Sequence record: PV682947.1
DNA from: Escherichia phage WPEC4
DNA: 64,000 bases
Strand: one strand, 5' to 3'
A program made the position numbers and the translations under genes. Below the pieces are notes generated by a model that saw only the letters and a program-made list of their open reading frames with translations, ran no database searches and was not told the origin of the DNA. This document shows positions 44,437-45,185 of this stretch, one piece after another (position 1 is the first letter of the stretch; every line of letters starts with the position of its first letter).

Positions 44437-45185
44437 TTAAACAAGTTTCTTAAACAAATCTGACATTTTATTTGTCTGGTTTTGATGTTTTCTCTTTATT
44501 GAAGTGTCTTTAACATACATGGCTTCAACATACTCTTCGTATGTTAAATACTCATATAGTTTTAAAAGATAATCTACACCGTAGTTATCCAATGTTTTCA
44601 GTGTTTCCGAGGTATCTTTAACGACTTTGCAAAGAATAACCTCATACCACTTCAAAGTAAGGGTTTTCGTTGCTATGTCGATAGCATGTTCAATCGCAGG
44701 TGTTAATTTGCTGCTAAACTCGTCATCGCCTGAAGCTGTGTGAACAGTTTTCCGAAACCTCGTTTGAAAAAAGGGCCGTAGTTTACCTCCAGAACTTTAG
44801 CAGTAAGATCTAACACTAGTTCTGGGTGAGCCATAAATAATTCATCAAAATTTTCTGCAACGTTATAACCGTCTTGAGTATAAACCTCATCTAAAATTTT
44901 ACGCAAAAAGACAGTTAAATTCTTTTCTTCCAAACCTGCAAAAAGTTGGATCAATGCCATAGCAATACGTGACTCAAGGTCTTCGTCTGCGGACATTGTT
45001 GCTGTGCTATACATAGTCATAGGAACAACCAGAACACTACCTAATTCTGGAATCCTGTCAAACACTTTAGATGGACTCCACTTCATAATACGGAAAGTAA
45101 CAGATCTGTTTCCATCTAACGGAATCTCAACTACTTCTTCTGGTCGAGCATATTTTTGAATTGTGTTATCTTGTTCTTGTGACAT
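44437..45185 (-). CDS. tail assembly chaperone -1 frameshift fusion product, G-T-like
   Basis: By hand translation the -1 frame from heptamer T_TTT_TTC (complement of 44766-44772) is open through to the stop at 44437 and is the frame of track ORF 44437..44655. Confidence 0.5.
44703..45185 (-). CDS. tail assembly chaperone, G-like (160 aa)
   Basis: Between tube and tape measure genes; contains the slippery heptamer near its 3' end. Confidence 0.6.
   Translation of the reverse strand: MSQEQDNTIQKYARPEEVVEIPLDGNRSVTFRIMKWSPSKVFDRIPELGSVLVVPMTMYSTATMSADEDLESRIAMALIQLFAGLEEKNLTVFLRKILDEVYTQDGYNVAENFDELFMAHPELVLDLTAKVLEVNYGPFFKRGFGKLFTQLQAMTSLAAN
44766..44772 (-). other. Putative -1 programmed ribosomal frameshift slippery site T_TTT_TTC
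   Basis: Heptamer in frame (cc-T TTT TTC) in the chaperone ORF at the canonical chaperone/tape-measure position. Confidence 0.5.

Follow-up and report, generated by a model that had tools for sequence, protein, structure and literature searches.

Among tail assembly chaperone (TAC) genes read through a programmed −1 ribosomal frameshift, that of phage P2 has a T-rich slippery run (T_TTT_TTG). Lambda shifts on the slippery sequence G_GGA_AAG (PMC3496638), and the shift efficiency of P2 is 2–3-fold above that of lambda (PMC5009743). In lambda, the tape measure protein (TMP) is bound by G, both as gpG and within gpGT, and the major tail protein by the T domain; gpG and gpGT are made at about 30:1 and are both absent from virions (PMC5009743; primary work by Levin et al. 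1993 and Xu, Hendrix & Duda 2004, 2013, 2014). Citrobacter phage Moogle, a FelixO1-like phage (KM236239, coding sequence join 49263..48626), has a 'tape measure chaperone' with an annotated translational frameshift (PMC4319497). [quoted passage not shown] The locus reported here is the TAC gene of Escherichia phage WPEC4, analysed in a 64,000-nt stretch of sequence record PV682947.1 (hereafter the window) on whose minus strand all the relevant genes lie. Judged from its sequence and its relatives, this Phapecoctavirus gene very probably contains a programmed −1 ribosomal frameshift.

The window is from a phAPEC8-like E. coli phage of the genus Phapecoctavirus (Stephanstirmvirinae); over the tail region it was 100% identical to Escherichia phage Mt1B1_P17 and approximately 99.7% identical to phAPEC8. 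An earlier reading made from the sequence only had placed T_TTT_TTC in frame close to where the 160-aa chaperone open reading frame (ORF) ends at its 3' side. Retranslation put the heptamer in the correct phase (Table 1) at codons 138–140 of TAC; its first T closes codon 138 (CC[T TTT TTC]), as the X_XXY_YYZ phase requires. The 0-frame codons at the run CCCTTTTTTC were GGC CCT TTT TTC, and the overlapping heptamer C_CCT_TTT, not mentioned in the sequence-only reading, was also phased; a slip there would lead to the identical product. The slip site is 22 codons 5' of the 0-frame stop (44705..44703), and the 160-aa ORF ends in ...VLEVNYGPFFKRGFGKLFTQLQAMTSLAAN before that stop. The same reading had the −1 frame open into ORF 44437..44655 and named a −1 stop codon on careful retranslation as what would overturn it; no stop was found from 44796 or from the heptamer until TAA at 44439..44437, and the observation was confirmed on all points. 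The −1 frame was therefore open over 44796..44440, with a 94-nt overlap with the TAC ORF, and crossed both the 47-nt 'intergenic' gap and the annotated 72-aa ORF, while the +1 frame was closed. The predicted long product, complement(join(44437..44766,44766..45185)), has 140 + 109 = 249 aa and a mass of 28.8 kDa. Its predicted junction joins ...VLEVNYGPFF to QTRFRK... and would give the junction peptide VLEVNYGPFFQTR, with VLEVNYGPFFK as the peptide of the short form. The extension peptides TVHTASGDDEFSSK and LTPAIEHAIDIATK are encoded 5' of the annotated TTG start, and hence would be obtainable from the shifted frame only.

Comparison with Moogle showed that the TAC bodies were homologous (hhalign probability 95.7%, E=9e-9), that the same phased T_TTT_TTC stood at the aligned position, where LEANFGSFF of Moogle aligns with LEVNYGPFF of the window, and that the −1 extension also reached the tape measure gene. 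However, the Moogle TAC is shorter (133 aa) and is without the C_CCT_TTT overlap, a GGAGG-type element spaced as in the window and the R-F-R/GGTTTCG block described below. The loci treated in the available parts of PMC12846349 resemble the window in having a TAC-N with a −1 extension annotated as 'hypothetical protein', a poly-T motif close to the 3' end and, in all alleles, an open −1 frame. The TAC analysis in those parts covers Vandenendeviridae and Andersonviridae, not Stephanstirmvirinae, and the GTTTTT motif given there differs from the window, where no G precedes the T-run, although the T-run is common to both. With lambda G/GT, the shared traits were a TAC pair between the major tail/tube and tape measure genes, a −1 ORF overlapping the 3' end of the first ORF, a canonical phased heptamer inside the overlap and a downstream ORF without its own initiation signals. 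Lambda is a siphovirus, however, and neither window domain was detectably similar to lambda G or T. Pfam assigned the TAC to PF21822 Phage_TAC_15 with 84.3 bits (cut-off 22) and E=1.3e-23 over residues 29–143, a family carried by all 41 database homologues of TAC, and the match with phrog_3840 'tail assembly chaperone' had E=2.8e-55. With the phased invariant heptamer, the open −1 frame, the Phage_TAC_15 match and the Moogle homology, the programmed −1 frameshift proposed in the sequence-only reading was supported. Its comparison to the G/G-T arrangement between tube and tape measure genes was correct for the position, the canonical one of a TAC frameshift, but P2 gpE/gpE+E' (Christie et al. 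2002) is a closer analogue than lambda G/GT because this is a contractile-tail phage (sheath-tube-TAC-TMP); P2 likewise has a contractile tail, and its frameshifted TAC lies between the genes for tube and tape measure.

Conservation was examined over 59 loci, consisting of 15 GenBank relatives (including phi92, phiWec186/188, FKP3, KP13-16, rV5, 18-1-2, SSE121, Hena1, KB57, CB7, CR9 and UPEC06) and 44 IMG/VR loci, with 45 distinct TAC nucleotide sequences. The loci span Stephanstirmvirinae and Vequintavirinae, and TAC protein identity to the window went down to approximately 30%. T_TTT_TTC was identical, in phase and at the aligned codons in 58 of the 59 loci; the IMG/VR sample is selected on site amino acids and not on codons, since one of the two peptide patterns that fetched it contained 'FF'. 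Among the distinct TAC alleles, 44 of 45 kept xxT TTT TTC. Over the 45 distinct sequences, codons 138–140 had third-position entropies of 0.15, 0.00 and 0.15 bits, compared to a gene mean of 1.51, and the wobble positions of the neighbouring Tyr and Gly codons were freely variable. At codon 138, Stephanstirmvirinae have CCT (Pro), with CCCTTTTTTC as the slip site, whereas Vequintavirinae have TGT (Cys), with TGTTTTTTC; the T of the heptamer was retained despite the residue swap. In every locus the −1 frame continued for 218–278 nt past the TAC stop and ended just before the TMP gene, compared to only 7–61 nt for the +1 frame. In the Vibrio phages S4-7, qdvp001, 166E36-1 and vB_CoeS_P1 (L014, L064, L065 and L066), which form a divergent branch of this TAC family, a phased A_AAT_TTT two codons upstream replaces T_TTT_TTC; it sits on the 'NF' of the shared motif, and the −1 frame was open for 218–242 nt to the TMP gene. 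These four phages share a mutual identity of only 27–40%, and no frameshift was annotated in any of their four records.

The −1 frame extension had the same layout in 21–22 lineages, with R-F-R, a variable Ser/Gly/Thr-rich linker, a conserved domain of approximately 65 aa and a basic tail. In the extension alignment, R-F-R was placed 2–3 codons after the heptamer, with R3 and F4 invariant and R5 at least 90% conserved. The second Arg was encoded by CGG, CGC, CGA or AGG, synonymous codons of two codon families, while the overlapping 0-frame residues varied (F/L, G/A/E), so that selection acts on the −1 frame at this position. R-F-R, present at the homologous positions of all Stephanstirmvirinae and Vequintavirinae loci, is under purifying selection in the −1 frame, and its conservation exceeds that of G-F-G, which overlaps it in frame 0; it may serve as a hinge or binding motif or act through the nascent chain. 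This dual coding (G-F-G in frame 0, R-F-R in frame −1) accounts for the near-invariant GGTTTCG block that follows the site on its 3' side. In 33 of 36 distinct contexts, only 3–8 codons separated the heptamer from the last upstream −1 stop; across lineages, the change of frame seems to be confined to essentially the heptamer itself.

The 249-aa fusion would also be made if RNA polymerase added an extra U at T6 and the transcript was translated in the standard way (CCU UUU UUU CAA...), as a single-U insertion yields the identical protein and the slip site is a homopolymeric T6 in nearly all relatives. Bacterial RNA polymerase slips efficiently on runs of 9 A or T, whereas at T5C5 no slippage is detectable unless a special context is present (PMC5009743); the T run here is below this length requirement of approximately 9 nt. 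All 44 alleles had a run of exactly six T and none had more, though longer runs are encodable, and both the 3' C (Z position) and the codon phase, which are relevant to tRNA re-pairing and not to the polymerase, were invariant. Furthermore, the A_AAT_TTT of the Vibrio branch is heteropolymeric (A3T4) and a canonical ribosomal heptamer. The short fixed T6, the invariant phase and C, and the A_AAT_TTT branch thus favour tandem-tRNA slippage, and slippage during transcription is improbable.

The ORF at 44655..44437 has an in-frame TTG at 44655, and nearly all GenBank and RefSeq records annotate it as a separate 'hypothetical protein'; if it was independently translated, the open −1 overlap would be incidental. 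No Shine-Dalgarno (SD) sequence was found before this TTG, whereas a GAGG SD precedes the tube, TAC and TMP starts. Protein conservation in the −1 frame began approximately 35 codons 5' of the TTG, directly after the heptamer, and at least eight lineages (L010–L013, L050, L024, L028 and L032) had none of the codons ATG, GTG and TTG in this frame ahead of the conserved core, for which reason some records leave the −1 region blank. The database homologues of the extension were 'hypothetical proteins' of 64–85 aa to which the gene callers gave inconsistent N-termini. Two separate genes would also leave the synonymous-site freeze at the heptamer unexplained. Given the TTG without SD and the lineages without a start codon, the extension appears unable to initiate independently, and a separate gene is very improbable. 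A search with the 249-aa query among 5.8 billion proteins found no fused product, annotated or natural in-frame, but only TACs of 158–175 aa, and none of the sampled Phapecoctavirus, phi92-like or rV5-like records annotates the shift. In rV5 (L006, NC_011041), gp050 (1851..2219) has its annotated start at 1851, inside TAC at the heptamer (1854); this start is an artefact that arose when the −1 ORF was called as a gene of its own.

The AT-rich window has many phased X_XXY_YYZ heptamers, 85 in the 71 ORFs of at least 100 aa, and the open −1 run after them had a median of 6 codons compared to 109–110 at the TAC site, an arrangement that exceeds chance. That the heptamer and the open frame are a coincidence without function, or an unused remnant, is scarcely credible even with stimulatory structure absent from the folds given below, and is effectively refuted by the comparative data, with an invariant heptamer and purifying selection on the −1 frame over two subfamilies and related families. 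The same scan listed a second long −1 candidate, the efficient heptamer T_TTA_AAG (first base 52720) in a 115-aa ORF (52489..52836, minus strand), which was rejected since this is a spurious alternative-frame ORF within the real 159-aa gene at 52771..52292. Other long −1 candidates (4640 on the plus strand and 52648 on the minus strand) were trivial, and an ordinary stop/start overlap was found at 4649.

The slip itself, its extent and its part in tail assembly are what we infer from this anatomy and conservation. Most ribosomes would read codons 1–160 and stop at the 0-frame stop, producing an 18-kDa short chaperone. A minority would slip back 1 nt, either on C_CCT_TTT with Pro/Phe tRNAs or on T_TTT_TTC with Phe/Phe tRNAs in the P and A sites, and would read 109 further −1 codons to 44440 to produce the 249-aa, 28.8-kDa fusion. 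By analogy with lambda gpG/gpGT and P2 E/E+E', both forms would be made at a fixed ratio, coat the TMP and recruit tube subunits, and neither would remain in the finished virion. The slippery run suits E. coli, where only one A-site tetramer is more prone to shifting than U_UU.C, UUN codons rank among those that shift most readily, and heptamers with all-pyrimidine X/Z combinations are favoured (PMC4066793). The window has 10 tRNA genes at 274..2199 on the plus strand (Met ×2, Arg-tct, Ser-gct, Asn, Thr-tgt, Gly-tcc, Gln-ttg, Pro-tgg and Ile-gat); the tRNA-Pro(UGG) of this cluster could read the CCU codon of C_CCT_TTT, and the cluster has no tRNA-Phe.

In E. coli dnaX, the −1 frameshift occurs on A_AAA_AAG and is stimulated by a 5' SD-like element and a 3' hairpin. 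For that gene, Larsen et al. are said to have reported in 1994 a stimulating range of spacings that includes an SD-like element 10–13 nt upstream. The internal SD-like GGAGG of the window is upstream of both heptamers, its end 10 nt short of C_CCT_TTT and 13 nt short of T_TTT_TTC, and the predicted signal would be the slippery run alone, possibly aided by this element and without 3' structure. The window differs from dnaX in having another heptamer and role, in lacking a 3' stem-loop 5–9 nt after the heptamer and in that its SD-like element is not TAC-family-wide. GGAGG/GAGGT was present in Stephanstirmvirinae and rV5 and was lost in KB57, CB7, CR9 and L052; the element was therefore rejected as a family-wide conserved stimulator and may be at most a clade-specific enhancer. 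One tentative idea, which we consider rather unlikely, is that the Stephanstirmvirinae signal is composite and 5'-driven, unlike most TAC sites. It would consist of the decamer C_CCT_TTT_TTC with two consecutive chances to slip and of GGAGG/GAGGT 10–13 nt upstream acting as in dnaX, with no 3' structure. T_TTT_TTC would have been frozen since before the Andersonviridae/Vequintavirinae/Stephanstirmvirinae split, and only the Vibrio branch would have moved two codons to A_AAT_TTT.

[quoted passage not shown] A downstream stimulatory RNA structure, proposed as a check in the sequence-only reading, was not detected; nine single-sequence folds compared to shuffled controls gave z values of −0.83 to +1.53 with none supported, and alifold of 11 relatives gave −3.5 kcal/mol with 0 compensatory pairs, pseudoknots not being explicitly modelled. 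With no detectable 3' structure, the shift efficiency may be low. The extension had no significant match in Pfam and NCBIfam, where DUF6889, HTH_40 and DcuR were at noise level, and a PDB sequence search with the 249-aa fusion gave no match. Profile comparison of the window extension with the Moogle extension gave E=0.025, at which homology is not demonstrable, and the AlphaFold2 model of the 249-aa fusion from a 39-row alignment was unusable (mean predicted local distance difference test, pLDDT, 47.8; predicted template modelling score, pTM, 0.24). As the extension has no family or structure match, its chaperone role would follow from position and analogy. Finally, literature searches for the shift in phi92, rV5 and Phapecoctavirus (Stephanstirmvirinae/Vequintavirinae) produced no report, experimental or other.

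Retrieved annotations together with domain and profile matches gave the order sheath, tube, TAC, −1 extension (to 44437) and TMP along the minus strand (Table 1). This order and the family matches agree with the sequence-only reading that the frameshift supports the tail-module gene assignments, which are thereby confirmed. Besides phi92 gp131, the tube protein also matched PDB chains named 'Tail tube protein' (9cuy_J and 9cb9_B, E=2e-30).

Table 1. Coordinates of the slip site, the reading frames and the neighbouring tail genes in the window.
Feature	Position	Strand	Basis or reading
Slippery run CCCTTTTTTC with overlapping phased heptamers C_CCT_TTT (44775..44769) and T_TTT_TTC (44772..44766)	44766..44775	−	Retranslation
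Tail assembly chaperone (TAC), short 0-frame product, 160 aa, 18.2 kDa	44703..45185 including stop	−	Pfam PF21822, phrog_3840
−1 frame extension, 109 codons and stop	44437..44766	−	Open frame; phrog_16039 E=5e-45; protein-level conservation
Last −1 frame stop (TAA) before the slip site, marking the 5' limit of the region in which the shift can occur	44797..44799	−	
Internal Shine-Dalgarno-like GGAGG, possible 5' stimulator	44786..44790	−	Sequence and spacing; putative function
AGG TTT CGG, R-F-R of the −1 frame overlapping 0-frame G-F-G	44752..44760	−	Extension alignment
Small 'hypothetical protein' ORF, 72 aa, TTG start	44437..44655	−	Read as the 3' part of the extension, not a separate gene
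Tail sheath gene, 457 aa	45757..47130	−	phrog_205 E=2.9e-100; Pfam DUF3383; tail sheath in NC_052662
Tail tube gene, 159 aa	45231..45710	−	PDB sequence match: phi92 gp131 (21vm_A, E=5e-95)
Terminator-like hairpin in the tube–TAC gap (45 nt)	45206..45225	−	Pattern scan: 8-bp stem AAAGGGCAGAAATGCCCTTT, then TTATC (T-run)
Tape measure protein (TMP) gene, 662 aa, TTG start	42428..44416	−	phrog_16051 1248 bits; TMP in NC_052662; GAGG SD

Frameshifting of this type is ordinary and well known in long-tailed phages. The site is of a known kind and hardly new even in its lineage, given the Moogle annotation and the case made for Vandenendeviridae and Andersonviridae. Two more subfamilies are added to the FelixO1-like and Pakpunavirus-like phages with this slip site, and the understanding of the frameshift mechanism is unchanged. 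The main value is for annotation, as the genome records of approximately 130 Stephanstirmvirinae and over 200 Vequintavirinae, including many phage-therapy candidates, read 'TAC + hypothetical protein' or 'TAC + gap'. For the window, the correct feature would be the join given above for the long product, with the qualifier ribosomal_slippage. In addition, T_TTT_TTC and A_AAT_TTT at almost the same position offer a clean natural comparison for the evolution of recoding signals.

Other observations were made on the tail genes. A terminator is listed in phAPEC8 records for the region matching the tube–TAC hairpin, which may attenuate transcription and keep chaperone and tape measure levels below that of the tube. 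The TTG start of TMP with its GAGG SD was shared by the window (44416), phi92 and phiWec186/188 (L002–L004), and this conserved weak start codon is consistent with low tape measure expression. The CB7 record marks sheath, tube and TMP as 'MS/MS confirmed' and has no such notes for TAC and the downstream ORF, which is a weak hint that the TAC products are absent from virions. The 233-aa product of 41600..42301 on the minus strand is named 'tail fiber protein' in RefSeq (phrog_817), yet it matched Pfam Dit_like PF21821 with 94 bits and is more likely a baseplate hub or distal tail protein than a fibre. Finally, MG065650, MG065689, MG065644 and other records labelled 'Campylobacter phage', as well as OP562383 ('Acinetobacter phage vB_AbaM_ABPW7'), were 99.5–100% identical at the locus to E. 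coli Phapecoctavirus, Justusliebigvirus or rV5-like sequence; probably these records carry a mistaken host label or stem from contamination.

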